Of a stretch of DNA of 52,468 nucleotides, positions 4,453-52,415 are shown one piece after another. The notes beneath the pieces were generated by a model that saw only the letters and a list, made by a program, of their open reading frames with translations, ran no database searches and was not told where the DNA came from. Both the position numbers and the translations under genes were made by a program. Every line of letters begins with the position of its first letter. Positions within the stretch are counted from its first letter, which is position 1. The DNA is from a virus (taxonomy: Duplodnaviria > Caudoviricetes). The stretch spans positions 1 to 52,468 of IMG/VR virus record IMGVR_UViG_3300033153_008490. One strand, given 5' to 3'.

Positions 4453-4465
4453 TGTCGTTCCCCTT

Positions 4466-18258: not shown

Positions 18259-18274
18259 TATAAAGGTGGTAATC

Positions 18275-19182: not shown

Positions 19183-19195
19183 CAGGAGAGTAAAA

Positions 19196-19666: not shown

Positions 19667-19672
19667 TGGTGA

Positions 19673-21672: not shown

Positions 21673-21708
21673 GCATGCGAAGGATACATCCACAAATGGA
21701 GAGAAGAA

Positions 21709-24775: not shown

Positions 24776-24789
24776 CAGGAGAGCAACCA

Positions 24790-25887
24790 ATGACACAAGA
24801 GAAATGGGCACCAGCCACGATTCCCGACTGGGACGGAAAGACCGAAGTTTCAGTAGTCATTCCGTTTTGTAATGAAGGACCCAACGTCGTCTTTACGATT
24901 CAGTCGATTATCGAAGAGTTGACCGGGTTTTGCAAATTTGAAATTCTAGCGATTGATAACCAATCGGATTGGTATATTGATTGCTCGGTCAAGAATGAGC
25001 ATATGCCGTTGATGGATGGCAAGGAACGTAAGTATCCCATTCGGTCACGTGCTTTCTTTGAAGGGCCACCCAACTCAAAGCGTGCCGGTAGTACGATCAG
25101 TACTATGTTCTTCCGTAAAGGTGTGGTTAAGTATCTCAAGTACGACCAGAAGCAAGGCCACTGGAATGCGAAGAATCATGGAATCGCCAACAGTCGGGGT
25201 AAGTATCTCTTCTTTGTGGACGCCCATTGCATTATGGCGAGAGACTCGCTGCGACATATGGTAGAGTTCCTGCGCCACCCGCCGGAGAAGAAGATTGGCG
25301 GTGTCCACGCGTACATCAACTATATGCTGGATTCGCGGTCACTAGAGTACCGCCCACAGAAGGACAAGTTTTTTGGCTACCAATTCTGCACCCACCAACA
25401 GGAAGAGTATTACGAAGGGGGGAAACGGAAATTGCGCTTCCCCACGAAAGCGTATAAGGTCTGTGTTATGAGTACATGTGGCATGATGTGTCCGAGGACG
25501 GTGGTACAGGAGTTGGGCGGTTGGCACCCTGAGTTCGGTATCTACTGCGGTGGTGAAGGGTATATGAACTTTAAGCAAAGCGTTTGTGGCTATCATCACT
25601 GGATCGAGCCAAAAGCCGTTTGCTGGCATTGGGCGGAAAAGCGGGGCTATATCTGGAACCATCGTGATTACGTGCGGAATGAGCAGATTGCAGCTTTCGT
25701 CTGTGGTGGGGAACGAGCGTTGCAGTTTTGCGTAAAGGGTCGCGGGGGTAATCAAGGGTTGATTGATCTGGCTGACGACGTGCGCGAAAAGTGTACCCCG
25801 GAACGAGAGTTTATAGCGGAGAGACAATTGGAAGACCTAGAGTCCTACTTTGACCGCTGGGTTGCAACCCCTGGAGTATGGAAATGA
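24790..25887 (+). CDS. GT-A glycosyltransferase resembling polypeptide GalNAc-transferases
   Basis: SVVIPFCNE, EILAIDN.SD, G....KN.GI..SRG.YLFFVDAHC, LGGW...FGIYCGGE...NFK...CG.....P.A.C.H. Confidence 0.8.
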   Translation: MTQEKWAPATIPDWDGKTEVSVVIPFCNEGPNVVFTIQSIIEELTGFCKFEILAIDNQSDWYIDCSVKNEHMPLMDGKERKYPIRSRAFFEGPPNSKRAGSTISTMFFRKGVVKYLKYDQKQGHWNAKNHGIANSRGKYLFFVDAHCIMARDSLRHMVEFLRHPPEKKIGGVHAYINYMLDSRSLEYRPQKDKFFGYQFCTHQQEEYYEGGKRKLRFPTKAYKVCVMSTCGMMCPRTVVQELGGWHPEFGIYCGGEGYMNFKQSVCGYHHWIEPKAVCWHWAEKRGYIWNHRDYVRNEQIAAFVCGGERALQFCVKGRGGNQGLIDLADDVREKCTPEREFIAERQLEDLESYFDRWVATPGVWK

Positions 25888-30865: not shown

Positions 30866-30875
30866 GTAGCAACTA

Positions 30876-35757: not shown

Positions 35758-37329
35758 ATGGCAAAGTTTCCGATATACCAAAGTCAAGCAGCCTACTCAG
35801 CGAAGCCTGTGGGCGCACCTGCCGATTTGGGGGGTGAGGCGGTGGGCCGCGCTATGTCACAGATTGGCCGCGCAGCTGTTACGATTGGCACGCAGTACTT
35901 TAAGCGCCAGCATGATAGCCAAGTAGAGTTCGCTGAGATAGAAGCTAAGGCAATTATTGCCAAGGCCGAGCAAGAGATGGAAGACTCGGTTGACGAGGGG
36001 GACTATCCAACAATTTGGGCGCAAGCACAGGCCGAACTCGCCGCTCTCAGTGGTGATATGAGTAACTCAGCGGCCAAGAACGACTGGGCTACCCGTGTGC
36101 GACAGATAGAGGTGGATGGGGATGCTTTCGTCGCAGGGGCACAAGCCAAACGCATTGACGACAAGCAGCAATACATCTTATCGACCAAAATCGCCGAAAT
36201 GCGTGAGTCAGGTGATATTACTAAATTGGACGCCTATACCCAGAGGCAAGTCAATCTCAACACCATGTCGGCGGAGGAGCGAGATACCATTCTGGCTCAA
36301 GCAAGGCCTGTCGCTGAGGAAGCTAGTCGCAAAAACATGCTCGACGCGGCTATGGTGGTCGCGCAAGACTCTCCCCAGCAAATTATCAGCACATCCCTTG
36401 CGGACCTGCGAGCTACCTATCCTTCCTTACACTCCCGTGATGTACTAAGTCTGAAGTCTGTCGCACAATATGCGCAAGATGATGAGGAACGTGCAGAGAA
36501 AGCATTCCTGGTTAATCTTAAATCAGATGCACTATCCAAGGCCGAGATAGGCATGCCCATCACTGAGTTCTCCAACATGCTAAGCCAAACACCCAGCCTT
36601 GATGTGGATGATCGCTTGGAACTCACTCGCACGTTCAAGAATGCGCGCCATATATTCGACACGACCGGCGAAGATCCGTGGAAGCAAACACAGAACAGTG
36701 AGACGCTTGGCAGAGCACTTCTTGACATCCTCGGCCCCAACGATCCGACGGTGGTGCACGGCCCGGAAGACATTTACGACTTGTGGATGGCAGATGGCAC
36801 ACCCCAATGGTCTATCAATGATTACTTTATGGTTAGCAACCTGTGGACCGACCAACATATACAAGGTGCCGCAGCGGGTTGGAGTCGTAGTTTTCCCACC
36901 GTTGCGTTCGGAACGGACCAAATCGAGAGAGCGGTGTTTAAGGGCGTGGAAGAACCAACGCCTGAGATGTTTGCCGAGTATCATCGTGCGCTATCCATGT
37001 GGATTACCGAGTCACAGAAGCCGGAAGTGTTTGGCAGTCCTGAAAAGATGGCCGCTGCGTTGGACACAATACTAATACCTATTCAGAAGGAGAAGTCTGT
37101 GGGCTTTCTGAAGTGGCTCACCACGTTGACTCCCCCGATGCAAGCATATAAACTGGGTAAGAAGATGATATTGGACACAGAGGGACCAGCCGGTAACACC
37201 GTACCGCTCAGTATGCCCTTCTTTGGCCACGAAGCTATGTTTATGCCTGACATGTCAGAGGGTAATCCTTATAGCTTCGCCCCGAAGAAGGAGAAGGAGA
37301 AGGAGAAGAAGGAAGGGGAGTCTAAATGA
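35758..37329 (+). CDS. Internal virion (ejection) protein
   Basis: MAKFPIY N-terminus, Ala/Gln-rich helical composition and position. Confidence 0.65.
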   Translation: MAKFPIYQSQAAYSAKPVGAPADLGGEAVGRAMSQIGRAAVTIGTQYFKRQHDSQVEFAEIEAKAIIAKAEQEMEDSVDEGDYPTIWAQAQAELAALSGDMSNSAAKNDWATRVRQIEVDGDAFVAGAQAKRIDDKQQYILSTKIAEMRESGDITKLDAYTQRQVNLNTMSAEERDTILAQARPVAEEASRKNMLDAAMVVAQDSPQQIISTSLADLRATYPSLHSRDVLSLKSVAQYAQDDEERAEKAFLVNLKSDALSKAEIGMPITEFSNMLSQTPSLDVDDRLELTRTFKNARHIFDTTGEDPWKQTQNSETLGRALLDILGPNDPTVVHGPEDIYDLWMADGTPQWSINDYFMVSNLWTDQHIQGAAAGWSRSFPTVAFGTDQIERAVFKGVEEPTPEMFAEYHRALSMWITESQKPEVFGSPEKMAAALDTILIPIQKEKSVGFLKWLTTLTPPMQAYKLGKKMILDTEGPAGNTVPLSMPFFGHEAMFMPDMSEGNPYSFAPKKEKEKEKKEGESK

Positions 37330-40300
37330 CTTTCAGAGACACATTAGCGCCCAAACCATCGCCATTGGACGTTGCGTCTATGCCGAACACAATGTTTCCA
37401 GAGGAGATACGCGAGTACTCGGACCAAATTCGCAACGCCTATTACTATTCGCGTAATCTTGGTGTTCCCCCTCAAATTGCTATGGACTTGGAACCAGCGA
37501 TCAACGAACACCTCTATGGTGAAGGTATCTCATCGTCCCAAGCATGGCAACAAACCTCATCACGCACTCTATCGTCACGTCGAAAGAGTCTGCACACCGC
37601 TGCGTATGACGGGTGGCGCAACAGCGTTGCTTCGGCTACCGCACAAGCCGCTGGATTTGGCCGCTTTCTCGCTGAGTTCAAAGGGATTGACCAAAGTGTG
37701 GTAGATCCTGCATTTCGCTGGATGTTGGGCATACCGAAAGATGTGGACTTGGATGATGTACTCGCGGGTATCTCAGTTGCGGCACGTCAAGATATCATAG
37801 ACGGGAATAAGGATAATCCGAATCGCACTCTCGCTATCGACCAGGATGCTGGGTATGCCGAGGCGTTATATCAAGTGATAACACGCCCGGAAAACCTTCT
37901 CCAAGGATTAGTGGAGAGTGGACCGCTTATCTTAGAAGGAATGTTGACGGGTGGAGCATTCGGTAAAATACTAGGAGCGGGCGCAGTTCGCGCTGGTCGC
38001 ATTTTAGGTATGGGTGTTCCTATCTCAAGCCAAGCTTACGGTGATGCTCGTGCGGAAGGTACGGCCCCACTATCCGCATTAGGACAAGCACTTCTCACGG
38101 GCGGCATTGAAGCGGTGATTGAAGAGTGGACGCTGGGACGTAAAATAGGGCTCGCCAAACACTTCAAACGCTATGTACAAAGTGGCGGCATGCGTCGCGC
38201 TGTGTGGGAAGGAACGAAGGCGTTTGGGCGTGGAACCGCCGAGGAAGGGACACAAACACTTAATGAGAACTTCTGGCGCTGGGTTTTTACCGACCGCAGT
38301 CAGGAGTGGTTTGAGGGTGTGAGTCAGGCAATGGCGATGGGTGGGCCATTGGAAGCGGTTATGTCAGGGGCGTTTAGCGGGGTGAGTGTGATTGGCACAC
38401 CCGTAGAAGCGAAAGAAGCACAGCGGCGACTTAAGGTGCTGCGCAAACTGGTGAAGAATAGCACGCTCAGCCCAGCAGAGAAAGAGGCATTAAATCTTGA
38501 GTTCGACAAGGCGGCGGGTTTAGTACCAGATATCCTAACACCGATTGAAAAAGGGTTGCAGGAGAAGGGCGCGCGATTCGTCAAAACGCCGAGTGGGGAA
38601 ATGGGCGAGGGTGAGATACGTGACGCTAAGCGTAAAGCCGAGGAAGCGAAGACGAAACCGGAGATCGGTGAAGGGGAAGGCGGGGAAGGGTTTACGCCGT
38701 CTGTGACTGAGGGGATGCCAGAGATATTGGCCGAGCCCACATCCAAGGCGGACAAACCCATCCCGCCTACGATATCTATGGAAGCATATGAAACACCAGA
38801 AGAAGCCAAAACTGCCCGCACTCAACTAGAAGCCGAAGCAGGGGAGAAAGTCAGCCCCCGTCTCTACATCGGCAACGTCACTCCTCGCGCAAAGAAGGCG
38901 TGGGGTAAAATATTTGGTAAGCCACCAGCCGCTGTCCACACCTTCAAAGAGGGGGCGTTTCCCACCAAGCGTACGGCTATTGAAATGACGCGTGGCCAAG
39001 CTGAGTCTTACCTTACATGGCTGGAAGAGGATCTCGCCTCCCGCATTGATAACAACGAAATCAACACCAATCGTGACATAGCGATGGCCCACGCTGATTG
39101 GGGGGATATTGCCTCCATTCGCCGTGTTCTCGGTATAGAAGTAGGTGTCGAGCCCTTCCGGGTACACTATACCAAGGCCAAAAAAATGGCCTACATAGAT
39201 CAGAAGGAAGTGGCTAAACTACGTAATGAGATCCACCGCTTAGATAAACAACTCTCCACTCTCAACGCGAAAGAAGAGACTACGGAATTAACAGACGCAG
39301 AAGACACAACACGCGACCGTCTGGCCGCCGAACTACGTGCTCTGGAGGAGAAAGTATACCAACTACAACGAGCTGCTGGTGCCGCTGTGTCTATATTGAA
39401 AAATGTGAAAGCGGTTATCTCTTCCGCCGTAACGCCCAGCAAACTACAAATGTCGAACCTGACCGTACAGGAGGTGCTCCGCGCCACCATGAAACGGGGG
39501 GCACGATATGCCAAAATGGCCTACGCCGGTGGTCGTAGAGAATTACGCGCTCAAATCCAAGCACAACGCGAAGCCCGTCGTCGTCTTGCATCAGCTATCA
39601 AGCGTGCGCGGCAGCCTATTCCAAATACCGTAAAGTTGGAATACCGACAGGCTATTCACGAACTACGCAAAGGCGTTGATCTCCGACGGCGTAGTCAGAA
39701 GGTGTTGGCTGAGCGGCGCACCATGCGAAGACTGGTGGAAAAGTACCCAGAGGTATTCAAAGGTATGCCAACTAAGCGGATGGCACAGCTATTGATACGT
39801 CCACTGAATGACTTCACTATTGGCGAATTGGAAGACTTGGCGTCCCAGATCGATACGCTTATCGCTATGGGCCAAGTCGCTAAGGAACAAGTGGTTGTCC
39901 AAGAGGAAAAGATGAAGAAGCGTGACTTGGGCGCCCTTACCGCCGGATCAACGAAGGCCACTGCGCGAGATATAATTCGTCCCGACCAAGTGGGTAAACC
40001 ACTAACCCTGGAGCAGCGCACGAAGAACACATTGGCAAAATTAATCAACACCGCTAAGGTAAAATGGCGAGCCTTCACAATGCCAATGGATGTGTTGTTC
40101 GATTTAGCTGATGGGGGCACGGCGACCTACGACGGTCCCAATTATCGCATTTTCAAAAGGACTTTGGATGAACGATATGGACACTACAAAAACCGTGCTG
40201 ATGGTTTGGTTCACGATGTGCGAGAGCTAGCCCGCGCGCTAGGACTCACCAATCCCAATTTTGAACGCATTGGCGTTTATGCAGTAGATCAGCAAAAAGG

Positions 40301-41867
40301 CGGTCGTCAGAAGTTGTTAGACACGGGCTACACCGAAACTGAGATCAAGTCAGTTGAACTTAACGACGGGGAGATGCAAGTCTATGCGGCTATGCGAGAG
40401 GCGCTTGATGAGTTACGCCCTGATGTAGAAGCAGTACTCCGTGACGTCTATGATCGTGAGATGTCTGTTGTGGAAAACTACTTCCCGTGGTTGACCAACT
40501 TCGCAGAGATGTCAGACTCCAAAATTCAGGATATGTTCGGTGACACTGTAAAGGAGTATGAGGGTCCGGTAAAGCAGAAAAAAGTTGATCTGGGCATAAC
40601 CTTGACAAGAACCTATGGCACGCAGGCCGTTAAGATTAATGCGATGGAAGTGTTTGAGCGCCACGTTGACAACGCTTCCTATCTAATTGAGATGTCGGGC
40701 GACATCAAACGGCTCTTTGAAATCGCCAACACCCAACAATACAGCGACGCCGTGGGCGAAAGTGTACAAATGGAGGTGCTTAACTACCTTAGCTTGATGG
40801 CGCGCAAGGGTGGAATTGAGCGTAACAAGTCAATCCCCATATTGGATGTTTACCGCAAACACGTAGGCGCTGCCACGCTAGGCTTTAAGCTTTCCTCCGC
40901 CCTTATCAATGTTACGCCATTGTTGGATGGGGCAGGGCTGATTGGCCGCTATGCTTTCACGGGTGCGTATGACATTGCTACGAATCAAGAACTACGTGTG
41001 TTTCTGGGGAAAAACTTCCCCGAATTACGAGACCGTATGGGTGGGGAAATTGATCTACGCGATTTTGGTTCTTCTACGCTTCAGAGGATAGAGAAGGCGG
41101 GCTTCTGGCCCCTCCAGAAGATAGACGGCCTAACCGCCATGTCCATCGTAGCGGGCGCGTACCAAAAGTATTTGGACGAGCACGGACTCAAGTTGGACCT
41201 GACACGGCCTAATACAGAGGGAATCGCTGAAGCACAGCGCATCATGCGAAGGACGCAGGCGTCCGGTTTCTCTAAGGACCTGCCCTCCGCTTTCACTCAA
41301 GGCACTGTAACAGGTAACGTGTCTATAGATCGATTGCTGCTTCACTTCCAAACATTCATCGTAAACCGTTGGTCTTTCATCGAGCATGATATGCTGCGCG
41401 CAGGGATAAAGACGGGCAACACGACTCAGATGATGAATATCTTCTTCTGGATGTCTATGGCGTTGTTTGCCGAACTTGGTTTGCGTCGCATGTCCAAAGA
41501 ACTCATTGCCATGATGACGGGGGAAGACTTGGATGATTGGGGGGAGACGTTTACCAATGAGTGGGTTGCTAATGCACTGCAAACCGTGCCCGGCTTATCC
41601 CAAGCGACCAGCGCCTACACCTATGGCTCCATGCCCGTACCGACGCTGGCTATCACAAATGATCTACTGGTCAAACTACAATATCTCAAACGAACCAAAA
41701 ATCCCAATAAAAAGCTCATCAAAGCGATTGAGCTAGGATTATTATCTACTGGCACTGCGATGGGCGTACCGGGCACACGACAACTCAGCGATATAGCCAA
41801 TAGCTATAATCGTACATTGCCGTCATCGCGGGGCAAAAAGAAATTCGAGTGGAAGTCTACGAGGTGA
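37326..41867 (+). CDS. Large internal virion (ejection) protein, T7 gp16-like position
   Basis: 1513 aa helical, EGTQT and RRTQ...F..FI..RW C-terminal region, immediately before the tail fibre. Confidence 0.7.
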   Translation: MTFRDTLAPKPSPLDVASMPNTMFPEEIREYSDQIRNAYYYSRNLGVPPQIAMDLEPAINEHLYGEGISSSQAWQQTSSRTLSSRRKSLHTAAYDGWRNSVASATAQAAGFGRFLAEFKGIDQSVVDPAFRWMLGIPKDVDLDDVLAGISVAARQDIIDGNKDNPNRTLAIDQDAGYAEALYQVITRPENLLQGLVESGPLILEGMLTGGAFGKILGAGAVRAGRILGMGVPISSQAYGDARAEGTAPLSALGQALLTGGIEAVIEEWTLGRKIGLAKHFKRYVQSGGMRRAVWEGTKAFGRGTAEEGTQTLNENFWRWVFTDRSQEWFEGVSQAMAMGGPLEAVMSGAFSGVSVIGTPVEAKEAQRRLKVLRKLVKNSTLSPAEKEALNLEFDKAAGLVPDILTPIEKGLQEKGARFVKTPSGEMGEGEIRDAKRKAEEAKTKPEIGEGEGGEGFTPSVTEGMPEILAEPTSKADKPIPPTISMEAYETPEEAKTARTQLEAEAGEKVSPRLYIGNVTPRAKKAWGKIFGKPPAAVHTFKEGAFPTKRTAIEMTRGQAESYLTWLEEDLASRIDNNEINTNRDIAMAHADWGDIASIRRVLGIEVGVEPFRVHYTKAKKMAYIDQKEVAKLRNEIHRLDKQLSTLNAKEETTELTDAEDTTRDRLAAELRALEEKVYQLQRAAGAAVSILKNVKAVISSAVTPSKLQMSNLTVQEVLRATMKRGARYAKMAYAGGRRELRAQIQAQREARRRLASAIKRARQPIPNTVKLEYRQAIHELRKGVDLRRRSQKVLAERRTMRRLVEKYPEVFKGMPTKRMAQLLIRPLNDFTIGELEDLASQIDTLIAMGQVAKEQVVVQEEKMKKRDLGALTAGSTKATARDIIRPDQVGKPLTLEQRTKNTLAKLINTAKVKWRAFTMPMDVLFDLADGGTATYDGPNYRIFKRTLDERYGHYKNRADGLVHDVRELARALGLTNPNFERIGVYAVDQQKGGRQKLLDTGYTETEIKSVELNDGEMQVYAAMREALDELRPDVEAVLRDVYDREMSVVENYFPWLTNFAEMSDSKIQDMFGDTVKEYEGPVKQKKVDLGITLTRTYGTQAVKINAMEVFERHVDNASYLIEMSGDIKRLFEIANTQQYSDAVGESVQMEVLNYLSLMARKGGIERNKSIPILDVYRKHVGAATLGFKLSSALINVTPLLDGAGLIGRYAFTGAYDIATNQELRVFLGKNFPELRDRMGGEIDLRDFGSSTLQRIEKAGFWPLQKIDGLTAMSIVAGAYQKYLDEHGLKLDLTRPNTEGIAEAQRIMRRTQASGFSKDLPSAFTQGTVTGNVSIDRLLLHFQTFIVNRWSFIEHDMLRAGIKTGNTTQMMNIFFWMSMALFAELGLRRMSKELIAMMTGEDLDDWGETFTNEWVANALQTVPGLSQATSAYTYGSMPVPTLAITNDLLVKLQYLKRTKNPNKKLIKAIELGLLSTGTAMGVPGTRQLSDIANSYNRTLPSSRGKKKFEWKSTR

Positions 41868-41871: not shown

Positions 41872-44373
41872 ATGACAGTTAGTAATAGCACCGCACGAAC
41901 CAGCGCCGTAGGCACGGCCACCGCTGGACAAGCTGTACCGTTCTCGTTTCCTATCGGTGCGAGCAGTGAATTGGTCGTCAAATCCCGCGTAACCACCACC
42001 GGCGTAGAGGCGACGCTCACGGAAACGACGGACTACACAGTGGCCATCACAGGGGACACAGGTGGCACCGTAACTATGGTCGCCGCGTGGGCGACTACGT
42101 ATGAAATCTGGGTCCTGCGCGACACGACCAAAACACAGTCGCTCGACCTAATCCACGGCGGCACCTTCTCCGCTGAGAATATCGAGGACGCACTCGATAA
42201 GAATTGCAAATTAACAGTAAACAATGCGGATGAGTTGGACCGCACACTTCGCGCCCCCGACACAGACCCTACTACGCTTGACATGGAATTGCCCAACAGT
42301 GTGGATCGCGCGAGCAACTACCTCGCATTCGATTCCGATGGGGAGCCCACAATGGTGGCTGGCGTTGCTCCAACAACGGCGACGATCTCGGCGTGGGCGG
42401 AAACGCTATTAGATGATAGTAGCTCATCCGAGGCGCTAAGCACACTCGGCTTTAGCGCTTTTGGCAAAACCATAATCGACGATGCGGATGCAATAGCGCT
42501 CAAAGATACCACAAATTTGGATCACGTGTTCGATGTGCGAGATTATGGGGCTCTCATCAACGGAACTACTGATGACACCGCTGCGATCAAAGCGGCGATA
42601 GACGCAGCTGAAGCAGCCGGTGGCGGGACAGTCTTCCTGCCAAAAGGTACGTATTTGATCTCCCCCGGCACAACAACATACTGGACTCTGACAGAGAACA
42701 TCCAATTCATTGGCGAGCCTGGTACGATAATGGATCTGGAAGATATTCTCGTATTTCAAGCCAACGACGCTGATGCGACGCTGGTTTTGCAGACCGACAT
42801 CTCTCGGGGGGACACAACACTGACCGTAGACAATGGGTCTAGCGTCTCTGCGGGTGATGTCCTCCATATTACCACTACGACCAATATCGGTCCCGGTAAC
42901 AAGGAGGAGACCCACATTGTACGTTCGGTCTCCGGTAATACGATTACGCTGGCGGATTCGCTTTTGATGAGCTATGCCACGGACGTGGATGGTGGTAGTT
43001 TGGATGCTGGCTTGGCTATCAACGCCTACAATGAGCGCAAGTTATTGGTGCGAAATATCCAATTCAATGTGACCACTAGCACAGCCATCGACTTCTTCGG
43101 GCTCGCCGAACTCATTATTGAGCGAAGTGCTGTTGATAGTGATATCGCCACCGGCACCGCTTGTCTAATCGACAAGTGCTGTAATGTTCATCTCACAGAC
43201 TGGAGTAGTTCAGACGCTCATTACGGAATTGAAACAGCCAGCGTCAACGGCTTCTACGCCGATAGAGTGTTTGCCCATCGCAATGCCCAGCACCCCATTG
43301 CGCCGGGTTACGGCTCGAACAACATCTACATCAGTAATATCGTCGGGCGTGGATGCGGAGCCACAGTAGACAGCCACTTCGCCTTCAACGTCCACTACAA
43401 CAATGTAGACGCACAGGATACGGGCAAATTCTCATTGCGAGGTCTCGGCAATTGCTCCTTGCGAAATGCCAAGATTCACACTTCGACGGCGGACACTGGA
43501 GTAGTCTGGTACGAAGGCAACTCAGCAACTTTGACGGCCGACACGGCTATCTACGATACGACGAACTTCACGTTTGAGAATATCGAGATTCTTGCTCCCA
43601 ATATTACACCAGAGACGGTCGCCGAACGGATGGATTTCTACTACGGCGAGAATCTAGTGTTGAAAAATTTCACCTTTCCCGGCCACGTGCTACTCAGCAG
43701 CGTATCAAACAACGGGTTCGAGACGATTAACATATCCAATTCAAAAATATTCAAACTTCAATGTCAGGGCGGTAGTCGTATCTCTATTGACGGTACGCAA
43801 TTTGTCAGCGCCGTAGCGACGGACGCCGAGGACGTAGGCTTGATCGTGACGTCTGCTTTATCTCTTGTTCTAAGCAACTGCCGCTTCCAGGATTACGATT
43901 TTATCCAAGCTCAATACCAAGCGGTGCGACCTACGTTTTGGTCCAATTGTACGTTCGAGGATTGTGGTGATTTTGCCCACGATACTAAAGGCGCTGGCAC
44001 CGCCGCCGTTCACTACTTCACCAACTGTGATTTAGCCGACGTCGCCGCAATTGCCGCCACTGAAGTATTGAATAATGCGCACTTCACACAGTCTTGTAAT
44101 ACCGGCACAACACCAGCGCTGCACACAGGTTCGGTAACTTGGGACCCAGCTAGCCTAAACGATGGTGTTGGGGAGACCTCCAGCGGCATTACAGTAGCCG
44201 GTGCAGCCTTGGGCGATTTTGTGCAAGTCTCTGCGCCATACGACCTTCAAGACTGTGTTGCGCACGGCTATGTCCAGGCAGCCAACACCGTCGAGATCCG
44301 CCTACAAAACGAATCAGGCGGGGTTAAGAATTTTGCCAGTGGTACGTGGCGCGTGCGAGTAACCAAATTGTAA
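41872..44373 (+). CDS. Tail spike/fibre with beta-helix (pectate lyase 3-like) depolymerase domain
   Basis: T7 gp17-like N-terminus (FSFPI....L.V...TDYTV...GGTVT...E.ALD), then DVRDYGA..NG..DDTAAI.AAI.A....GG.V.LP.GTY and beta-helix repeats. Confidence 0.88.
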   Translation: MTVSNSTARTSAVGTATAGQAVPFSFPIGASSELVVKSRVTTTGVEATLTETTDYTVAITGDTGGTVTMVAAWATTYEIWVLRDTTKTQSLDLIHGGTFSAENIEDALDKNCKLTVNNADELDRTLRAPDTDPTTLDMELPNSVDRASNYLAFDSDGEPTMVAGVAPTTATISAWAETLLDDSSSSEALSTLGFSAFGKTIIDDADAIALKDTTNLDHVFDVRDYGALINGTTDDTAAIKAAIDAAEAAGGGTVFLPKGTYLISPGTTTYWTLTENIQFIGEPGTIMDLEDILVFQANDADATLVLQTDISRGDTTLTVDNGSSVSAGDVLHITTTTNIGPGNKEETHIVRSVSGNTITLADSLLMSYATDVDGGSLDAGLAINAYNERKLLVRNIQFNVTTSTAIDFFGLAELIIERSAVDSDIATGTACLIDKCCNVHLTDWSSSDAHYGIETASVNGFYADRVFAHRNAQHPIAPGYGSNNIYISNIVGRGCGATVDSHFAFNVHYNNVDAQDTGKFSLRGLGNCSLRNAKIHTSTADTGVVWYEGNSATLTADTAIYDTTNFTFENIEILAPNITPETVAERMDFYYGENLVLKNFTFPGHVLLSSVSNNGFETINISNSKIFKLQCQGGSRISIDGTQFVSAVATDAEDVGLIVTSALSLVLSNCRFQDYDFIQAQYQAVRPTFWSNCTFEDCGDFAHDTKGAGTAAVHYFTNCDLADVAAIAATEVLNNAHFTQSCNTGTTPALHTGSVTWDPASLNDGVGETSSGITVAGAALGDFVQVSAPYDLQDCVAHGYVQAANTVEIRLQNESGGVKNFASGTWRVRVTKL

Positions 44374-44396: not shown

Positions 44397-44435
44397 CCCT
44401 GCCCCCGGCTTGTAGCTGGGGGTGGGGCGCTTTTT
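44397..44435 (+). terminator. Rho-independent terminator
   Basis: CCCTGCCCCCGGC-TTGTA-GCTGGGGGTGGGG followed by CGCTTTTT. Confidence 0.7.
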
Positions 44436-44446
44436 ACCGCCCAAAG

Positions 44447-44478
44447 TTGAACATAGTATTAGAGAGTGTAGTATAGGT
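44447..44478 (+). promoter_or_regulatory. Possible sigma70-type promoter
   Basis: TTGAAC-N16-TAGTAT in an AT-rich gap just after the terminator. Confidence 0.35.
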
Positions 44479-44522
44479 ATAAGTATGGGTAATAGTAATA
44501 CCAACCTAGTAGGAGAGTAGCC

Positions 44523-44852
44523 GTGTGGACCATACAGCAATATATCCCTAACTTCGTAGACATTGGAGACAAGATACCACCAACAGCATCATTCCAAACT
44601 TTGGAAGAGTTGACGGCAATCCCGTTTGTACAGGGTTGGACCGAAGATCCAGGATTCAAACAGTTATCCATGAGCATACGCAACAACGAGATTCGTCCAT
44701 ATCCCCTACTTATGGCCGAGTATGAGACCGGCAGCGCACCTTGCGTTGGCCACCTACGTGGTATACCCACATTTTTACCCTTATGGCGGCGTGTGTCCAA
44801 CGACGTAGCGCGTGCGCTCAATATTGATCCAAGTAGAATGCCTACCAAATAG
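44523..44852 (+). CDS. Hypothetical protein
   Basis: 109-aa ORF with AGGAGAG RBS and GTG start. Confidence 0.55.
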   Translation: MWTIQQYIPNFVDIGDKIPPTASFQTLEELTAIPFVQGWTEDPGFKQLSMSIRNNEIRPYPLLMAEYETGSAPCVGHLRGIPTFLPLWRRVSNDVARALNIDPSRMPTK

Positions 44853-44862
44853 GAGAGCAACC

Positions 44863-45888
44863 ATGTTATCAGTAATTGTGCCAGCCCATAATGAGGCCGA
44901 ATACTTAAACCACACCATCGCCAATATCTATGATACGGCCACTGGTCCCATCGAAGTGCTTGTTATTGACCAAGGGGGGAACGACAACATCGACGAGCGC
45001 GCCACCATTCTCACACCGGGCGAAAACGTAGGCGAGCGCGCCGCCATGAACATGGGCGCTAAATCAGCAACCGGCACACACCTTTTCCGCATAGACGCCC
45101 ATTGTGATTTCTCCCCCGTTGGCTGGGACGAATTGCTAATCGAGTCCACGGGTCCGAAGGATCTCACCATATCCGTACTCACCGCTACGGATAAATCGTG
45201 GAACCGACTCCCGGGCCACTGGTATGGCTTTGCCCGCCTTATCACGAATGAACAGGGGGGCCTGGAATGCAAATGGCAAAAAGCCAACAAAGACCATGAT
45301 GAGTACGCCCCCCTCGAACCGAATATGGGTGCGACCGGCTGCGGGATGTGTATCCGCAAAGACTTCTATTGGGAGATTGGCGGCGCTGACGATACATTGC
45401 CTAAGATGGGCGCAATCGGTGAAGAGTTTGCGATCAAAACATGGCACCACAATATCACCCACCACCTATTTGGCCGCGTCCAAACTCGCACCGACGTGAT
45501 GGTCGGCCATATATTTGGAACCGGTGGCTATGATACGAGTGGTGTACTCGTTGCCCAGCAAAAGCTTCACGCCCAATATGGCCATGTTCTCCCCCAAATC
45601 CTATCTCGCTTCCCCGATTGGGATGAGATGAAAATCGTGAAGACAGATCAACCCGGCAAACCCATCCGAACAGTGACCGTTGACCGCACAGATATCATGG
45701 ACACACATGGGGATGAAGGTAAGATCCTCCGCCGCAAGACCAATACCTATCGCTATATTTGGTTGGAGAATGAGCATTTAGACGAATCCGCCTGGACAGA
45801 CGGACAAATTGAAAACAAGTACGCCCCCCTAGCCACACTAATGAGCGAGACAGTGACCTACCCCGATGATGAAACGCCTAATGAGTAA
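44863..45888 (+). CDS. Second polypeptide-GalNAc-transferase-like glycosyltransferase
   Basis: LSVIVPAHNE, G.RAAMN.GA..ATG..LFRIDAHCDF...GWD, FYWEIGG.D......G..GEEF..KTW and VGHIF. AGGAGAG RBS precedes ATG 44863. Confidence 0.82.
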   Translation: MLSVIVPAHNEAEYLNHTIANIYDTATGPIEVLVIDQGGNDNIDERATILTPGENVGERAAMNMGAKSATGTHLFRIDAHCDFSPVGWDELLIESTGPKDLTISVLTATDKSWNRLPGHWYGFARLITNEQGGLECKWQKANKDHDEYAPLEPNMGATGCGMCIRKDFYWEIGGADDTLPKMGAIGEEFAIKTWHHNITHHLFGRVQTRTDVMVGHIFGTGGYDTSGVLVAQQKLHAQYGHVLPQILSRFPDWDEMKIVKTDQPGKPIRTVTVDRTDIMDTHGDEGKILRRKTNTYRYIWLENEHLDESAWTDGQIENKYAPLATLMSETVTYPDDETPNE

Positions 45889-45905: not shown

Positions 45906-46157
45906 GTGATGAACGAGCAAGAACGGTATAACGAGGTGTGTAAGCCAGCCATAGATCGTTTGGAAGTAGCGATCAACCAGTCGAATGATACGAGTGATGA
46001 GATATTGCGAATTCTGAAAGGCCGGAACGGGGATCCCGGACTGCTGGATGAAATGCGAGATATGAAGCGGTTTCGCAATGGGATACTGGGAACACTCGGC
46101 TTCATCCTAGCGGCCATGTTTACTCAGATGGTTCAATGGGTTAGAGGACTATTCTAG
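45906..46157 (+). CDS. Small coiled-coil protein with C-terminal TM (holin-like candidate)
   Basis: LKGRNGDPGL followed by one TM helix. Last gene of the late operon. Confidence 0.5.
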   Translation: MMNEQERYNEVCKPAIDRLEVAINQSNDTSDEILRILKGRNGDPGLLDEMRDMKRFRNGILGTLGFILAAMFTQMVQWVRGLF

Positions 46158-46169: not shown

Positions 46170-46544
46170 TTACAGAAGACCACCCACATAGTCCAGCAAC
46201 ACCATTCTAGGAGCGACGATTGCTTGTAGTAGGTCTGTGACATTGCAAAGCAGTAAGATAACAGAGGTCGTCAGGGTCGCCACACTGATCGCACAAATTA
46301 TAAATGCGGCATCAGCACCCTCCCCCAACAGATCTATGTTCTTCTTGGTAAGCCCATACCGCAAGCACAACACGATCAGGGCCAAGCACGCCGCTATACC
46401 ACCCGCGCTGGACACAATCTGCCACCGAATTATCTCCTCCGCCAACAATGGACACTGGATTTGGAGGAACTCCACCCCTGCGGCCACATTGTCCTTTGCC
46501 AGGGTTATCACTTCTGTTAGTTGCTTACTCATCTCAGGGGACAT
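46170..46544 (-). CDS. Two-TM membrane protein
   Basis: Q.PLLAEEIIRW...APRMVLLDY with AGGAGAG RBS. Confidence 0.65.
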   Translation of the reverse strand: MSPEMSKQLTEVITLAKDNVAAGVEFLQIQCPLLAEEIIRWQIVSSAGGIAACLALIVLCLRYGLTKKNIDLLGEGADAAFIICAISVATLTTSVILLLCNVTDLLQAIVAPRMVLLDYVGGLL

Positions 46545-47166: not shown

Positions 47167-47772
47167 CTATTCCAATTCCAACTGCTTTACAATCTCTTCT
47201 GCTACCTCTTCCCACGTTTCATACTCATCTGGATCAATTGTCAAATCCACCTCGGCGATCAGCGCGGTCAACTCATCTTCATCCATACCTCTAACAGACT
47301 CAGCGGAGACCCCCTCATTCGCCCCATCATCCACCTCTCCAGTGGAATCAGCAGCGGGAGCCGCCCCTTCCACAACGAGGTCCACAAAATCAATGTTCGT
47401 AAACTCTCCATTGGTCCGTACCACAAACTGCATAGGCTTGTTCAACACGAGTTCAATCTGTGCGCCAATCTCATCAAGCGCCACGCTCGCGTCCAAACCA
47501 ATACTGGCCAAGTCCCTCTTCGCAAACGCAATCTGCTTATCCGTACTCAGCCCGGAGAACTTATACTGCTGTCTCCCTTCAAAATCCCCGTCAAGTACTC
47601 TCAAATGCCACACGATCTGTAGCTTATCACTCTTACTCAGACCAATTTCGTAATCCTCGATCAGACCGATATAATCACCATCCGGCAGATTCCCACTCTT
47701 GGTCGCTGCCTCGGTCTTCTTCCACAGTTGCTGCATTGTCTTGCTTTTCAATAGGCTGGCTACGCTAGGCAT
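47167..47772 (-). CDS. DUF669-like single-stranded DNA-binding protein
   Basis: LPDGDY...I.....G.SKS....I.W....G.FEGR and a very acidic C-terminus. Follows the AAA ATPase. Confidence 0.7.
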   Translation of the reverse strand: MPSVASLLKSKTMQQLWKKTEAATKSGNLPDGDYIGLIEDYEIGLSKSDKLQIVWHLRVLDGDFEGRQQYKFSGLSTDKQIAFAKRDLASIGLDASVALDEIGAQIELVLNKPMQFVVRTNGEFTNIDFVDLVVEGAAPAADSTGEVDDGANEGVSAESVRGMDEDELTALIAEVDLTIDPDEYETWEEVAEEIVKQLELE

Positions 47773-47832
47773 AATACAATCTCCAATACTGATACGTAAT
47801 CGATTACTGTTTGTGCTTCTTGTTCTACCTGC

Positions 47833-48750
47833 TCAACTTCTTTTAACCACTTTCTTCTTCACTTTCTTCTTCACCTTCTTCACTACTTTCTTCTTGGTCG
47901 GACTACTCCTCTCTGCCATCCTCGGCTCCCCACTAAACGCACTCAATATCCTCTGCACCGCTTCGTCTTCCGTTTTGAACGGCATTCGGGCAGGAAGGTC
48001 CGCTGTGGTACAGTTCTTCGCATCTTCGTCTTCATTCCCGCGAAAGACGAGACATCTCTCGGCGTTTATATCCCCCGCTATCGTATCTTTCACTGTGTAC
48101 GTTAAGTGCATGGTCATGTCAGCGAGAAAACTAATCGCATTGAAGATAGATTTACTCAGGTCCATGCGAGTATGAGTCATCTGCAAATGCCGCCGCTTGA
48201 TCTCTATCTCTCTCTCATGCGACACCAGCAACACACCCGGCCCCAGCGCTCTCAACCTCAACACCTGGTAGATTACTTCACTCTTCAGATCTTGCCACGC
48301 CCTCGCAAACCCTTCGTCACTCAGATCAGTAATCCCCCGGTCCAAGCAAACCGTACTGATCCCTTTATCCACCAACACATCTATCGTATCGATGACCCAC
48401 ATTTGCACCGTGGCAACCAATTCAGGCCGCTTCTCCATCTTGTCCGTAAACGCGCGAAGACTCACCCAGTTGGGCACATAAGTTGCGCGCCTCTTCTGCC
48501 ACTGAGATTTGTTCTCCGAGTCAATCAGGTAATGTCCTGGTACCTGACATGCTATTGCAGTTTTTCCCGCGCCTGGCGGGCCATACAATATCGCTATACA
48601 CTCTTGGAAAGACCCTGCGCCCACCTGCGCCTCTTCCATAAACGGCAGATCCACAACATCCTGATCCGCTACCATACGGTCCAACATCAACCGCTTAGGT
48701 GCCTTCGCTTTCGGCGTACTCGACTGTGTTGGTTTTAGATAGTTTGCCAT
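47833..48750 (-). CDS. AAA_24 / Sak4-like ATPase (recombinase)
   Basis: ILYGPPGAGKT, LIDSE, VIDTID, LVSHE and Lys-rich tail. Confidence 0.82.
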   Translation of the reverse strand: MANYLKPTQSSTPKAKAPKRLMLDRMVADQDVVDLPFMEEAQVGAGSFQECIAILYGPPGAGKTAIACQVPGHYLIDSENKSQWQKRRATYVPNWVSLRAFTDKMEKRPELVATVQMWVIDTIDVLVDKGISTVCLDRGITDLSDEGFARAWQDLKSEVIYQVLRLRALGPGVLLVSHEREIEIKRRHLQMTHTRMDLSKSIFNAISFLADMTMHLTYTVKDTIAGDINAERCLVFRGNEDEDAKNCTTADLPARMPFKTEDEAVQRILSAFSGEPRMAERSSPTKKKVVKKVKKKVKKKVVKRS

Positions 48751-48758
48751 TATAACTC

Positions 48759-49430
48759 CTATAACACTCTTACCGACTCTGACTGATATATCCGCACACC
48801 GGGAATTTCTCTGACCCCTTCTCTAATTGCCATACGAATTGCTATCGTGTCTACAATTAAATACCGTCTTGGCACCGTAGCGGAATCTTCCACCTCGAAC
48901 GTCCACCGCTTGGCCATACTAGCGACACCGACTTTAGATTGCACCAACTCAGCTTTCGTCTCTAGCACCTCTCGGCGTTCAACCGCTTTGACCAGCACTT
49001 TCTCATCCTTCGCCGTCAATCGCTTCTTCGCTTCCAACGCAGTGATCTTTGCTTTCTCCGCCTCAGCTTTCCGGCGAATCACTTCTTCTCTATTTCTCGC
49101 ATCCTCTTCCTGCTTATGCCGAAACACACCTATCTTCTGCCGTAATATGCTATCTGCTGCACCCAAAGGCGCACTTAACGTCTTGAACATCGCATTAACC
49201 TCTTTCAGCGACGCGTTCAACGGCTGGGTAATACCCTTTCGTTTCTTCTCCACCAACTGTAATCTCGCCTTAATCTCCTGCAATACTTCATAAGCCACGG
49301 TTTCCTGGGCAGGCAAAGCTATTTCAAACTGCTCTGCTTTTTGTACGATTGTGCTATTCTCCTTCCGTAAGATCATAACTTCTGCTTGTGATACTAGGGC
49401 AGTTGGAGTGATCTGTGTTTTCTTTGCCAT
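48759..49430 (-). CDS. Coiled-coil recombination-module protein (Gp157/Gam-like)
   Basis: E..RK.IT.PLN...K.VN..FK and W.FEV.D...VPR.YL.VD...I...I..G..EIPGVRI. Confidence 0.7.
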   Translation of the reverse strand: MAKKTQITPTALVSQAEVMILRKENSTIVQKAEQFEIALPAQETVAYEVLQEIKARLQLVEKKRKGITQPLNASLKEVNAMFKTLSAPLGAADSILRQKIGVFRHKQEEDARNREEVIRRKAEAEKAKITALEAKKRLTAKDEKVLVKAVERREVLETKAELVQSKVGVASMAKRWTFEVEDSATVPRRYLIVDTIAIRMAIREGVREIPGVRIYQSESVRVL

Positions 49431-49744
49431 TAGTTCACCTCATCTCGTCGTTCATTTTGTCATCCATTTTGCCTGAACTTTTACGCACGCAATCTCCACA
49501 TACGAGATGAGTCGCGCCTTGCTCATCACAAACATGTAGGAAATCGTCCTGGGGAACATCTTCTCCGCACTCATAGCATTTCGGAGCCATCAATCTTCTT
49601 CCTTTCCCACCAAAGTAATCAACTCCTCTACATCTCCGGCCATCTCTGTCACCGCCTCATCGTAGGCTTCGCGCACCACGCACACGGGACACCGTTTTAC
49701 CTCATAACACACTTGGCTGTGCTTATTGTCACAAAACTGCATAA

Positions 49745-50776
49745 TCACTCCTTTTGTCCTCCCCGCTTAGCCTTCTTCGTCTTCTTAACCTTCTTCACCA
49801 TCTTCCGCTTCACCTTTTTACGCACGATTCCACCCACCGGTTCTACCAATTCTGCCTTTTCTTCCTCGTATAAGAAATCCCGTTGCCGATATAACCGCAG
49901 ATAATACTCCCACGATCCCGCGTTCTTACATAGGGGCAAAAACTCACACCCGCTATACTCAAAACACTTATTGGGACACTTGGGCCATCTGTCGGGGGCG
50001 TGCAATTGATCCCCTAGATAGTCGTATCTCCGCTGGAGTATCTCCGTCGCATTCTCTACATCGGCTCGATTCGCTTTCATCACCGACCGCCCCAACGGAA
50101 CCGTGTGAAATTGGTAATAGACATTGGGCCTGTCAACGCAATCCTGTCGAATCTCTTCCACAAACTCGTCTATCGTCTGCTTCCTCTTCACTCGCTTCTG
50201 TGGCTTCATAAAAATACCATAGCAGCACGACGTAATGCCTTTAAACGCCGGCGTCATAGCGTATGAGTATAGTTGGGGATCAAATGCGAGCGCGTCCAAA
50301 TATGCCGCATTGACTCTTGCCGCCGTTTTAATCTCATACATCGACGGCTTACCCCGATACCGCCCCTTCCCATCAGCAGTCCCACAATAGAGCACCCCAC
50401 TGTGCTCTAACCGCAACCGCACCGGCACCTGCGTCACCTCCAATCGCATCTCCGCCACTTCTGGTCGCCTCTGCCCTCCCTCCAACAACACTTCGATAAG
50501 ACGGTATTGCAAATCCATCTCAGCTCTGGTTTCCTCTGGTATTGATTGTGTCACTGTTCTTCTCGCGTGCTCTGCCAACATCTCCGCTTGCCAATCTTCC
50601 CCCATCAGCATTGCTTCAAAGCCAGCGCCCAACACGCCTCCGTACCAAAAATTCAAATTTGTGGCTCTTGTTTGCAGGTTTAGAATCCACCGCCAATAGT
50701 ATCGCCTGAAGCAGCTAATGTCCTTCAGCTTATGCACACTGACAACACGGAGTTTATTACTCGGCACAATGCTCAC
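49745..50776 (-). CDS. PD-(D/E)XK nuclease (Cas4/RecB-like exonuclease)
   Basis: SCFRRYYW, G.ADG......EIKT, QLYSY, C-terminal C...C..Y..C.F...C and Lys-rich tail. Confidence 0.82.
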   Translation of the reverse strand: MSIVPSNKLRVVSVHKLKDISCFRRYYWRWILNLQTRATNLNFWYGGVLGAGFEAMLMGEDWQAEMLAEHARRTVTQSIPEETRAEMDLQYRLIEVLLEGGQRRPEVAEMRLEVTQVPVRLRLEHSGVLYCGTADGKGRYRGKPSMYEIKTAARVNAAYLDALAFDPQLYSYAMTPAFKGITSCCYGIFMKPQKRVKRKQTIDEFVEEIRQDCVDRPNVYYQFHTVPLGRSVMKANRADVENATEILQRRYDYLGDQLHAPDRWPKCPNKCFEYSGCEFLPLCKNAGSWEYYLRLYRQRDFLYEEEKAELVEPVGGIVRKKVKRKMVKKVKKTKKAKRGGQKE

Positions 50777-51280: not shown

Positions 51281-51817
51281 CTAGCCACACATACTACACT
51301 GCACTTTGCCTGGGCGCACAACCTGCATTGTTCGCGCTCCACACATGCAGCACACGATAGACCAAGCGCCCCCATACCCATCCTCAATAATGTCGTCCTG
51401 CTTTACCGGGTCGCACTCACTGACCGCCCCATTACAATAGTATAAGACTTCCCTGCCTAGCTCTTCAAACAGCTTCTTCTCCCCGCAACAGCCCTTAGAC
51501 GCCTCCCACCCTGGACTGAGAATAATCCCGGTGAAATTGGCATGTCGAATGAAAATCTCATCGTAGGAATACCACATCTCGTGAACTTCTTTGCCGACAA
51601 AATTGGGCCAAGCACAATGTATCACATGCGTGTGGGAAATGGGTGAATACACAACCCAACCGAGCTCAAGTAATTGTGCGGCGCGGATGTTGGCAAGTTG
51701 GAAATTAGCCTCCTCGCCCTCGAAAATGTAGTCACCTTTTTTGTTCTTAGTTGTATACGGCGATGCTAGGTAATAGAAGCCGGGTTTCCATTTTATGCTG
51801 TCCATATATGTCTCCAA
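51281..51817 (-). CDS. DUF1937 / nucleoside deoxyribosyltransferase-like protein with C-terminal Zn ribbon
   Basis: YYLASPYT...AAQLL..G..VYSPISHTH...GWE.S.GC..E and CCMC...CSMCG. Confidence 0.75.
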   Translation of the reverse strand: METYMDSIKWKPGFYYLASPYTTKNKKGDYIFEGEEANFQLANIRAAQLLELGWVVYSPISHTHVIHCAWPNFVGKEVHEMWYSYDEIFIRHANFTGIILSPGWEASKGCCGEKKLFEELGREVLYYCNGAVSECDPVKQDDIIEDGYGGAWSIVCCMCGARTMQVVRPGKVQCSMCG

Positions 51818-52326
51818 TTTTGTTTAGTGAGAATAGATGAGACTGTTTCACGACTCACATTAAACATTGCGCCAATCTGCTGTTGCGTGTATAATTTCGT
51901 GCGGCGCAGATAGATTATCATACGAACTTCTACCGCCTTGAGAAGCGTGCCCTTCCTGGTCGCAGATGGAATTCGACCCTTCGTAAAACATACGCGCGTC
52001 CCATGCCGAATCATATCACCGACATTTGCCTTTCTGGTGCCCCAGCACAAATTCACAATGCGATTATCAGTACGACACCCATTTAGATGTCGACACTCCA
52101 TTTCGGGTGGGCAGGGTCCGGTGAACGTCTCCAGCATTAGACGGTGAAGGGTTGTACGGCGTGCCGGAATGCCAATCCAGACGTAGCCATAAGGCCCAAC
52201 AGACCCGACGTGTCGCCCACAATGCGCCGACCACGCAAGGCCCTGTTCCGGCGAAACAAATATATGATCAAACCCTGCGGCCCTCACGTAACCAGAAGGA
52301 GGTTGCAGTAATTGCTTGCGTTTCAT
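51793..52326 (-). CDS. HNH endonuclease with C-terminal HTH
   Basis: HRLMLETF.GPCP...ECRHLNG...DNR..NL.WGT...N..D. GGAGG RBS precedes ATG 52326. Confidence 0.9.
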   Translation of the reverse strand: MKRKQLLQPPSGYVRAAGFDHIFVSPEQGLAWSAHCGRHVGSVGPYGYVWIGIPARRTTLHRLMLETFTGPCPPEMECRHLNGCRTDNRIVNLCWGTRKANVGDMIRHGTRVCFTKGRIPSATRKGTLLKAVEVRMIIYLRRTKLYTQQQIGAMFNVSRETVSSILTKQNWRHIWTA

Positions 52327-52415
52327 TGATAGTACCTCCAAATGACAATAAGAGTTCCAACAGCAAAGCATAGACTGCCCGCCAAATAGAACCAGTACGG
52401 CAGCAATTCTCTCAT
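52323..52415 (-). CDS. 30-aa membrane peptide
   Basis: MRELLPYWFYLAGSLCFAVGTLIVIWRYYQ, with ATGA overlaps on both sides. Confidence 0.45.
   Translation of the reverse strand: MRELLPYWFYLAGSLCFAVGTLIVIWRYYQ

Follow-up and report, generated by a model that had tools for sequence, protein, structure and literature searches.

The window analyzed here, the whole 52,468-bp stretch of DNA, is an entire IMG/VR virus record (IMGVR_UViG_3300033153_008490; Duplodnaviria, Caudoviricetes) from a podovirus-like phage, and the gene under study encodes a glycosyltransferase (GT) designated enzyme 2. Considering profile searches and a predicted structure together, enzyme 2 is best described as a soluble, metal-dependent GT-A enzyme whose catalytic domain is distantly homologous to that of GT27, the family of the polypeptide N-acetylgalactosaminyltransferases (GalNAc-Ts). 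The gene and its parts are as follows.

44863-45888, plus strand: enzyme 2, a soluble GT-A glycosyltransferase of 341 amino acids, stop codon included (ATG at 44863, TAA at 45886-45888; good ribosome-binding site)
44851-44862, plus strand: ribosome-binding context AGGAGAGCAACC before the enzyme 2 ATG; the same or nearly the same string stands before at least four other starts
44863-45630, plus strand: catalytic domain, residues 1-256, with a GT27-like GT-A fold according to the family profile, VIA-align, Foldseek and AlphaFold2 (AF2)
45094-45102, plus strand: predicted DxH metal-binding motif D78-A79-H80, with D78 and H80 unchanged across all 44 sequences and aligning with the DAH of TgGalNAc-T3
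45508-45510, plus strand: H216 in VGHIF, likely the third Mn2+ ligand; it is shared by all 44 sequences and aligns with the VGHVF histidine of GalNAc-Ts
45655-45867, plus strand: C-terminal domain of about 70 residues (265-335), consisting of two long strands (a beta-hairpin), a helix and a strand

A longer GTG start at 44812 does not appear to be supported; it would overlap the upstream open reading frame (ORF), and the position of the methionine at 44863 is the start in all 22 homologues listed, of the 44 aligned.

The initial annotation had called enzyme 2 ppGalNAc-T-like on account of several short motifs, and these were recovered: RIDAHCDF (residues 76-83), GW (87-88), KDFYWEIGGAD (166-176), GEEFAIKTW (186-194) and VGHIF (214-218) were paired by HMMER with LDAHCECFYGW, KDYFEYIGSYD, NIEMSFRVW and VGHVF of Toxoplasma GalNAc-T3 (6s22), all four quoted blocks thus aligning with a GalNAc-T. 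In a single-sequence search of the Protein Data Bank (PDB), the top two matches of enzyme 2 were both GalNAc-Ts (6s22, E = 9e-4, residues 4-219; 5nqa, E = 1.4e-3), whereas enzyme 1, the second enzyme of this kind in the phage, matched TarP best (E = 1.5e-3; GalNAc-T1, E = 0.01), in agreement with the claim that enzyme 2 is the closer of the two to GT27. Moreover, when PDB sequences were searched with a profile of the enzyme 2 family, built from a 44-sequence alignment, the eight best distinct sequences were all GalNAc-Ts (E = 5.1e-17 to 5.9e-10), with matches spanning positions 2 to 213-255. The next match, a chondroitin synthase (E = 9.9e-10), covered positions 2-103 only, and other GT2 enzymes matched roughly positions 2-80, at most the first 80-110. 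Because the profile E value reaches 5.1e-17 over positions 2-255, the match to GT27 is far beyond chance. The sole Pfam call was PF00535 (Glycos_transf_2; E = 4.9e-14, 53 bits against a cut-off of 23.3, residues 3-172), while bacterial NCBIfam families matched residues 2-92 only, far under their cut-offs, and PHROGs gave one weak match, to phrog_841 (GtrB-like O-antigen conversion; E = 0.025), limited to residues 2-80. Enzyme 2 does not resemble a GtrB-like protein in other respects, with no full-length match of that kind and no hydrophobic segment visible in its sequence.

The structural comparison pointed in the same direction. The AF2 model obtained from the 44-sequence alignment had a mean predicted local distance difference test score (pLDDT) of 92.2, and all 30 Foldseek matches listed against the PDB (among ranks 1-48) were GalNAc-Ts, with E values of 1.9e-14 to 4.0e-12. 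When model residues 1-256 were compared by VIA-align with 48,161 representative chains, GalNAc-T1 (8v9q) scored Z 23.2 (242 residues aligned, root-mean-square deviation [rmsd] 2.9 Å) and TgGalNAc-T3 (8uhv) Z 22.6 (238 residues, 2.7 Å), against Z 18.4 for the best non-GT27 chain, the K4 chondroitin polymerase (K4CP; 204 residues, 2.9 Å), 17.9 and below for generic GT2/GT-A enzymes, and 15.9 and 15.8 for TarS and TarP, respectively. Two of the checks that had been suggested, by hidden Markov model and by structure, both place GalNAc-Ts nearest to enzyme 2, and judged from profile and model the GT27 likeness is real, specific and spread across the whole catalytic domain (model residues 1-256).

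Twenty-four columns of the 44-sequence alignment are invariant, including D78, H80, E188, G215 and H216. For mouse GALNT1, PMC4202792 gives Asp209, His211 and His344 as the Mn2+ ligands. Alignment suggests that this metal site of GT27, DxH plus a later histidine, is kept in the enzyme 2 family, with metal binding predicted. The Gal/GalNAc-T motif of GT27, the WGGEN..E block, is kept in part: the block of enzyme 2 aligned with WGGENxE is M182-G-A-I-G-E-E188, invariant or nearly so in the family, in which G183 and E188 are kept and the tryptophan, the first glutamate and the asparagine are not. GT27 enzymes transfer GalNAc from UDP-GalNAc to polypeptide Ser/Thr with retention of configuration; since residues of this block, which we take to be GalNAc contacts, are not kept in enzyme 2, its donor sugar is not fixed as GalNAc.

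Enzyme 2 also departs from GT27 in architecture. GT27 enzymes carry a C-terminal ricin-like lectin domain (PMC4202792). No lectin domain was detected in enzyme 2 by Pfam, and no N-terminal hydrophobic stretch or membrane segment was found in its sequence. GT27 enzymes have a type II membrane anchor and a stem and reside in the Golgi lumen; enzyme 2 lacks both anchor and stem, because it begins with MLSVIVPAHNE at the first GT-A beta-strand, and would accordingly be cytoplasmic. The C-terminal domain was well predicted in the full model and, when the C-terminal 87 residues were modelled alone, again formed a small alpha/beta domain (pLDDT 87); R269, R275, D277 and Y298 are conserved there. Foldseek gave no match to it at E ≤ 1e-3, and the best VIA-align Z was 3.5. 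In the model it is a family-specific domain standing at the position of the GT27 ricin lectin domain. The label ppGalNAc-T-like thus holds for the catalytic domain with its DxH and histidine, whereas membership of GT27 proper is not supported, given the missing lectin domain and anchor and the WGGEN block not kept; by predicted architecture, enzyme 2 is not a GT27 member.

Homologues of enzyme 2 were found in metagenomes. Among 5.8 billion clusters, 102 homologues with 38-70% identity were retrieved, all of them metagenomic, and among 1.84 billion representatives at 50% identity there were 1,120 matches at E ≤ 1e-3 and 16 at E ≤ 1e-30. No enzyme 2 match was found by tblastn at E ≤ 1e-5 in 50,697 records of cultured phages; at E ≤ 0.1, 22 phage records matched, all through an N-terminal GT2 part amounting to 22-41% of the query and none from a mycobacteriophage. 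Across 185,579 prokaryote species, each represented by a single genome, a pattern scan yielded 40 matches, none of which was confirmed. As leads only, enzyme 2 falls in the ESM Atlas among several GT2 clusters of viral (Uroviricota) origin with 50-400 members each, some of them fused to sugar O-methyltransferase domains and some carrying Glyco_transf_7C. No title or abstract on phage GT27-like enzymes or on mucin-like phage tracts of Ser and Thr only was found in the literature searched, which included few subscription journals.

Immediately around enzyme 2, the following features were recognized.

44397-44427, plus strand: intrinsic-terminator-like hairpin of 14 pairs, 10 of them G-C, followed by the T-run CGCTTTTTAC, 24 nt past the tailspike stop
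44523-44852, plus strand: 109-aa ORFan between the terminator and enzyme 2; its status as a real gene is uncertain
45906-46157, plus strand: 83-aa protein with a hydrophobic C-terminus; tblastn matches at orthologue loci L002/L017, L006, L014, L019 and L040
46170-46544, minus strand: gene 3' of the 83-aa protein gene, matching phrog_3054, function not assigned

Enzyme 2 had been placed behind a terminator; the hairpin and T-run are present as described, but the ORFan intervenes. The ORFan has no Pfam or NCBIfam family, matched only itself among the 5.8 billion clusters, and is absent at related loci. No promoter was detected on the plus strand at 44430-44520 at the scan threshold; by eye, a TTGAAC..(16)..TAGTAT element at about 44440-44470 matches at 8 of 12 positions, below that threshold. 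The 83-aa protein, with no PHROG or NCBIfam family, lies near a tailspike or glycosyltransferase in relatives as well, and it and the 46170-46544 protein are possibly lysis-related.

The initial annotation had also drawn attention to a leader shared by the two enzymes. The 13-base leader AGGAGAGCAACCA does occur in exact copies at 24777 (enzyme 1) and 44851 (enzyme 2), but a specific link between the enzymes does not follow, as other genes have it too: copies with one or two mismatches, AGGAGAGTAACCA and GGGAGAGTAACCA, precede the ATG of the gene at 8159-8614 and the ATG at 8618, respectively, and close variants stand before 44523 (AGGAGAGTAGCC) and before the minus-strand gene at 46170-46544 (AGGAGAGTTATA). 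A k-mer search for a common intergenic promoter motif returned the ribosome-binding string only. Because copies precede other genes, the leader is read as the usual strong ribosome-binding context of this phage and not as a mark of co-regulation.

Enzyme 1 lies at the end of a glycan-synthesis island, which is listed here in the order of the map together with the main landmarks of the phage genome.

10544-12199: large terminase
13223-14851: portal-type protein
16453-17385: major head protein
18266-18877: tail tubular A homologue
19172-25887, plus strand: glycan-synthesis island of 7 kb, between the tail tubular A and B homologues
19172-20296: two methyltransferases (island)
20244-20897: LicD (island)
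20894-21295: cytidylyltransferase (island)
21292-21672: DUF2061 membrane protein (island)
21709-23412: methyltransferase-GT2 fusion (island)
23399-23911: GT11 fragment-like protein (island)
24110-24775: GT2 (island), followed by enzyme 1
24790-25887, plus strand: enzyme 1, the second DxH-type GT-A enzyme, with DAHC at residues 144-147 (Pfam PF00535, E = 5e-19)
32378-35215: tail tubular B-type tail protein
37326-41867: 1513-aa protein
41872-44373: pectate-lyase-type tailspike
47167-50776, minus strand: SSB-like, Sak4-like and exonuclease genes

The island has a GC content of 44.8%, against 50.0% for the genome. Enzyme 1 matched enzyme 2 by BLASTP at E = 3e-4 in the N-terminal part, and its hhalign comparison with the enzyme 2 family gave a probability of 96.5% and an E value of 8e-10 over 166 columns, which bears out the proposal of two related DAHC enzymes in one phage; the suggested split between them, by serine or threonine or by initiation or fill-in, is speculative. 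The small GT2 at 24110-24775 has a DSD motif and matches only over the N-terminal part. No tRNA genes were found in the window, and no integrase, lysogeny, DNA polymerase or thymidylate-synthase-type family was listed in a family scan of 39 window ORFs.

Further observations were made on the phage itself. The minus-strand gene at 2191-2838, in the presumed early region, encodes a pentapeptide-repeat protein with A[DN]LS[EGR] repeats and a C-terminal extension, and that at 51793-52371, also on the minus strand, an HNH endonuclease-type protein with a weak phrog_351 match; the latter is probably the protein behind a Sigma70_r4 match among the 39 window ORFs. In addition, a 24-kb IMG/VR record from another sample (G002; L055 / L073) is near-identical to the window (portal 99%, protein encoded at 9462 98%), so the phage has been assembled more than once.

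Three window proteins with long serine/threonine (S/T) tracts are candidate acceptors for protein glycosylation.

9462-10283, plus strand: candidate acceptor 1, a 170-aa globular domain with an S/T(A) tail of about 100 aa, encoded shortly before the large terminase
28496-30865, plus strand: candidate acceptor 2, 789 aa, in which an N-terminal part and a C-terminal domain flank an S/T tract of about 300 aa
30876-32378, plus strand: candidate acceptor 3, 500 aa, with an S/T tract of about 120 aa in its middle

The tail of the first contains S, T and a few A only. Among its homologues, S/T tails of about 60-140 residues occur in all four from IMG/VR (one near-identical to the window), and of 10 metagenome homologues seven have a tail of at least 30 residues, one a tail of about 10 residues and two none; four tails of this type finish in W-P-P-E-x-P. 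The other two proteins, in which the S/T(A) tract separates folded end domains, are encoded by adjacent genes after the island, just before the tail tubular B homologue, and have no PHROG match. A Laminin_G_3 domain (E = 7e-21) found in one of the 39 window ORFs is assigned to the 28496-30865 protein by its sequence, as the scan names no ORF. Complex predictions for the families of enzyme 2 and the 9462-10283 protein scored 0.46, 0.00 and 0.00, with the median under the mark, and count neither for nor against binding.

The surroundings of enzyme 2 orthologues were compared at 3 IMG/VR and 41 metagenome loci. In one of them (L003, 15.2 kb), a syntenic island opens with the orthologue (40% identity; profile E = 4e-133, positions 1-330), which lies directly 3' of a tail tubular A homologue and a 194-aa ORF and is followed by homologues of the methyltransferase, LicD, cytidylyltransferase, DUF2061 protein, methyltransferase-GT2 fusion, GT11, GT2 and enzyme 1. 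This synteny is the strongest link of enzyme 2 to the glycan pathway, and the description of enzyme 2 as lying outside the island is therefore correct for the window and not for this relative. In most relatives, the orthologue sits at the seam of the late genes and the recombination/DNA-metabolism genes: it immediately precedes YqaJ and RecT, sharing their strand, in L001, L014, L015, L017 and L018, and lies upstream of ERF and Gp157 in L013, L016, L019 and L039, and 3' of a conserved tailspike N-terminus and a 129-154-aa ORF in L006, L011, L013, L016 and L019. A 388-aa methyltransferase-domain protein comes after it in L026, L029, L030, L034 and L035, and a small methyltransferase and a second GT in L038.

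Neighbouring genes were scanned in 150 of 173 ORFs of at least 90 aa within 5 kb of the orthologue at 20 loci other than L003 and the window, the 23 ORFs dropped (from L001, L005, L010, L018, L030, L034 and L035, and one of L027) being mostly duplicates. Among the 25 of 43 families listed for these ORFs, a GT2 domain occurred once and a methyltransferase domain four times, and DNA methylase and uracil-DNA glycosylase (UDG) families were present. Thus, among the families listed, the orthologue is usually the sole GT nearby, although one GT of another family could be hidden because 25 of 43 are listed.

Relatives sharing the portal were scanned as well, in 24 IMG/VR records of which 6 are at least 90% complete, with a tract defined as at least 20 successive WSN codons. 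One record (G001; 24.8 kb, 46% complete) carries an S/T-tailed homologue and an enzyme 2 orthologue about 8 kb apart, with no enzyme 1 in the 24.8 kb available. Two records (G009 and G020) have more distant GT matches and no tract, and 19 have neither a tract nor an enzyme 2 match. G020 (L157, G020:C1) is complete (45.9 kb, direct terminal repeats, portal 41% identical) and encodes at 1820-4692, near one genome end, a 266-aa GT2 and a 701-aa GT2-methyltransferase fusion. Both the S/T tracts and the enzyme 2 orthologue are confined to the near clade; owing to shared ancestry and fragmentary records, no claim of co-occurrence is made either way.

Taken together, we tentatively favour the reading that enzyme 2 starts protein O-glycosylation on the S/T tracts of the phage, which we consider a real possibility that falls somewhat short of probable. 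It is favoured because a GT27-like fold and machinery is combined with solubility, a gene that often stands alone, long conserved tracts and a place at the head of the L003 island; moreover, since the orthologue is often alone among the families listed, a first-sugar role would fit better than elongation. Gene contexts, soluble architecture, homology, fold and conservation of the metal site are taken as shown; we infer the protein acceptor from likeness and context, and also the initiating role, the donor and the stereochemistry. In such a mechanism, the DxH residues D78 and H80 would act with H216 to bind Mn2+ and, through it, the diphosphate of a UDP-sugar from the host, and the sugar would be attached directly to Ser/Thr hydroxyl groups in the 9462-10283 protein and in the two proteins of 28496-32378 while these are being made or assembled in the infected cell. 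The island GT2s, the GT11, LicD with the cytidylyltransferase, and the methyltransferases might then extend and decorate the first sugar, and the C-terminal domain of about 70 residues would replace the lectin domain of GT27, with a possible role in docking enzyme 2 to its substrate.

Several observations weigh against this reading. Its main misfit is the seam position beside recombination genes, which would suit an early or host-directed function equally well. At the orthologue loci except L002/L017 (one contig), no S/T tract was found within up to 10 kb on each side, although this says little because the tract genes of the window sit 12-35 kb from enzyme 2. Moreover, two fragments of the portal scan (G002 and G011, 47% and 34% complete) carry a tract and no enzyme 2 match, and the complete G020 record has no S/T tract anywhere despite its related GT2 genes. 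The likeness of fold does not fix the acceptor, and donor handling probably differs from that of GT27 because WGGEN aligns with M-G-A-I-G.

Other functions for enzyme 2 were considered against the same evidence. That it extends a glycan begun by another enzyme, for example with enzyme 1 as the initiator, is fairly unlikely: the L003 island holds four other GT genes beside the orthologue, methyltransferase-domain proteins come next in five loci and a methyltransferase with a second GT in L038, the Atlas neighbours include viral GT2-methyltransferase fusions, and sugars are the acceptors of GT-A enzymes with a similar fold (K4CP, Z 18.4), but with a single further GT2 in the 150 neighbour ORFs (25 of 43 families listed) a lone extender would need a host-made primer, and the nearest relatives use naked or glycosylated peptides as acceptors. 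Modification of a host envelope polymer (teichoic acid, lipopolysaccharide or a capsule precursor) in the manner of the prophage enzyme TarP, with a receptor change blocking superinfection or the trapping of progeny, is the classic role of phage GT2 genes and would be consistent with the weak GtrB-like phrog_841 match (E = 0.025), the fold shared with TarP and TarS (Z 15.8 and 15.9) and the tailspike, a receptor-related gene, adjoining in many relatives. We nevertheless regard it as quite unlikely, considering that matches of the TarP/TarS/GtrB type are much weaker than those to GT27 and, in sequence, N-terminal only, that no membrane segment is present, that the families listed for the 39 window ORFs include no integrase or lysogeny family, and that the gene is not a prophage moron in the 185,579 species genomes, in which the pattern scan confirmed none.

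The seam position would also suit an early enzyme of host takeover with a host protein as its target for O-glycosylation, comparable to phage ADP-ribosyltransferases and bacterial effector glycosyltransferases. The gene stands at or before the head of the recombination-replication genes in L014, L015, L017, L018 and L001, its fold is of the peptide type, and it is alone; however, the L003 orthologue lies among late structural genes and the window gene is 3' of the tailspike on the late strand, and we regard this explanation as very unlikely. Adjoining DNA-metabolism genes in relatives, with DNA methylase and UDG families among the neighbours, would also suit glycosylation of modified bases in the phage DNA, but no thymidylate-synthase-type hydroxymethylase or DNA polymerase family occurs among the 39 window ORFs or the island genes. 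The T-even DNA glucosyltransferases have a GT-B fold, and no T-even-type glucosyltransferase appeared in the fold-match lists; we give this last explanation almost no weight.

Beyond the function of this one enzyme, tailed phages may possess a large family of cytoplasmic, lectin-less GT27 cousins, which in this phage would build, with the decorating island, a mucin-like coat or brush by starting O-glycosylation of the 100-300-residue tracts on proteins associated with the virion, a wider proposal that we consider conceivable and rather doubtful. To our knowledge, GT27-initiated mucin-type O-glycosylation is regarded as a eukaryotic process of the Golgi. If the proposal were true, a mucin-type system would exist outside eukaryotes and the GT27 catalytic domain could have its roots among phages or bacteria; the enzyme would offer a simple bacterial-expression model for peptide-site choice without a lectin domain, a possible tool for O-glycosylated proteins in bacteria, and a lead on the roles of glycan coats in environmental phages (stability, adhesion and escape from recognition). 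If host polymers or proteins are the targets instead, enzyme 2 would represent a new stand-alone family of phage accessory enzymes that counts over 100 members, none of them cultured.

As far as we know, the phages shown to glycosylate their own particles are limited to a few mycobacteriophages, whose enzymes are unrelated. According to PMC12363180, mycobacteriophages (Che8 gp110, Corndog gp38 and Myrna) glycosylate capsid or tail proteins with their own glycosyltransferases, and the idea of own-particle modification is the same as that proposed here. The mycobacteriophage enzymes differ from enzyme 2 in showing no sequence relation by tblastn, in host clade and in the scale of the acceptor tracts. 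TarP and TarS (GT2) resemble enzyme 2 in being GT-A enzymes that are soluble and cytoplasmic and have an additional C-terminal domain, and TarP is likewise phage-borne; they use DxD chemistry and are inverting, their Z scores are 15.8-15.9 against 23 for GT27, and their sequence match is confined to positions 2-80. The GT27 GalNAc-Ts (T1, 8v9q; T2, 4d0t; TgGalNAc-T3, 6s22/8uhv) are like enzyme 2 throughout the catalytic domain (about 240 residues), in the DxH and later histidine and in the aligned KDFY..IG..D and ..E..F..W blocks, while the identity is 15-19%, the lectin domain, anchor and stem are missing from enzyme 2, MGAIG stands for WGGEN, and a phage is set against the eukaryotic Golgi. 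A soluble, lectin-less and cytoplasmic relative of the GT27 catalytic domain exists in Gnt1 (GT60) of Dictyostelium, a eukaryotic polypeptide GlcNAc-transferase that acts on a protein side chain, with hydroxyproline as the acceptor.

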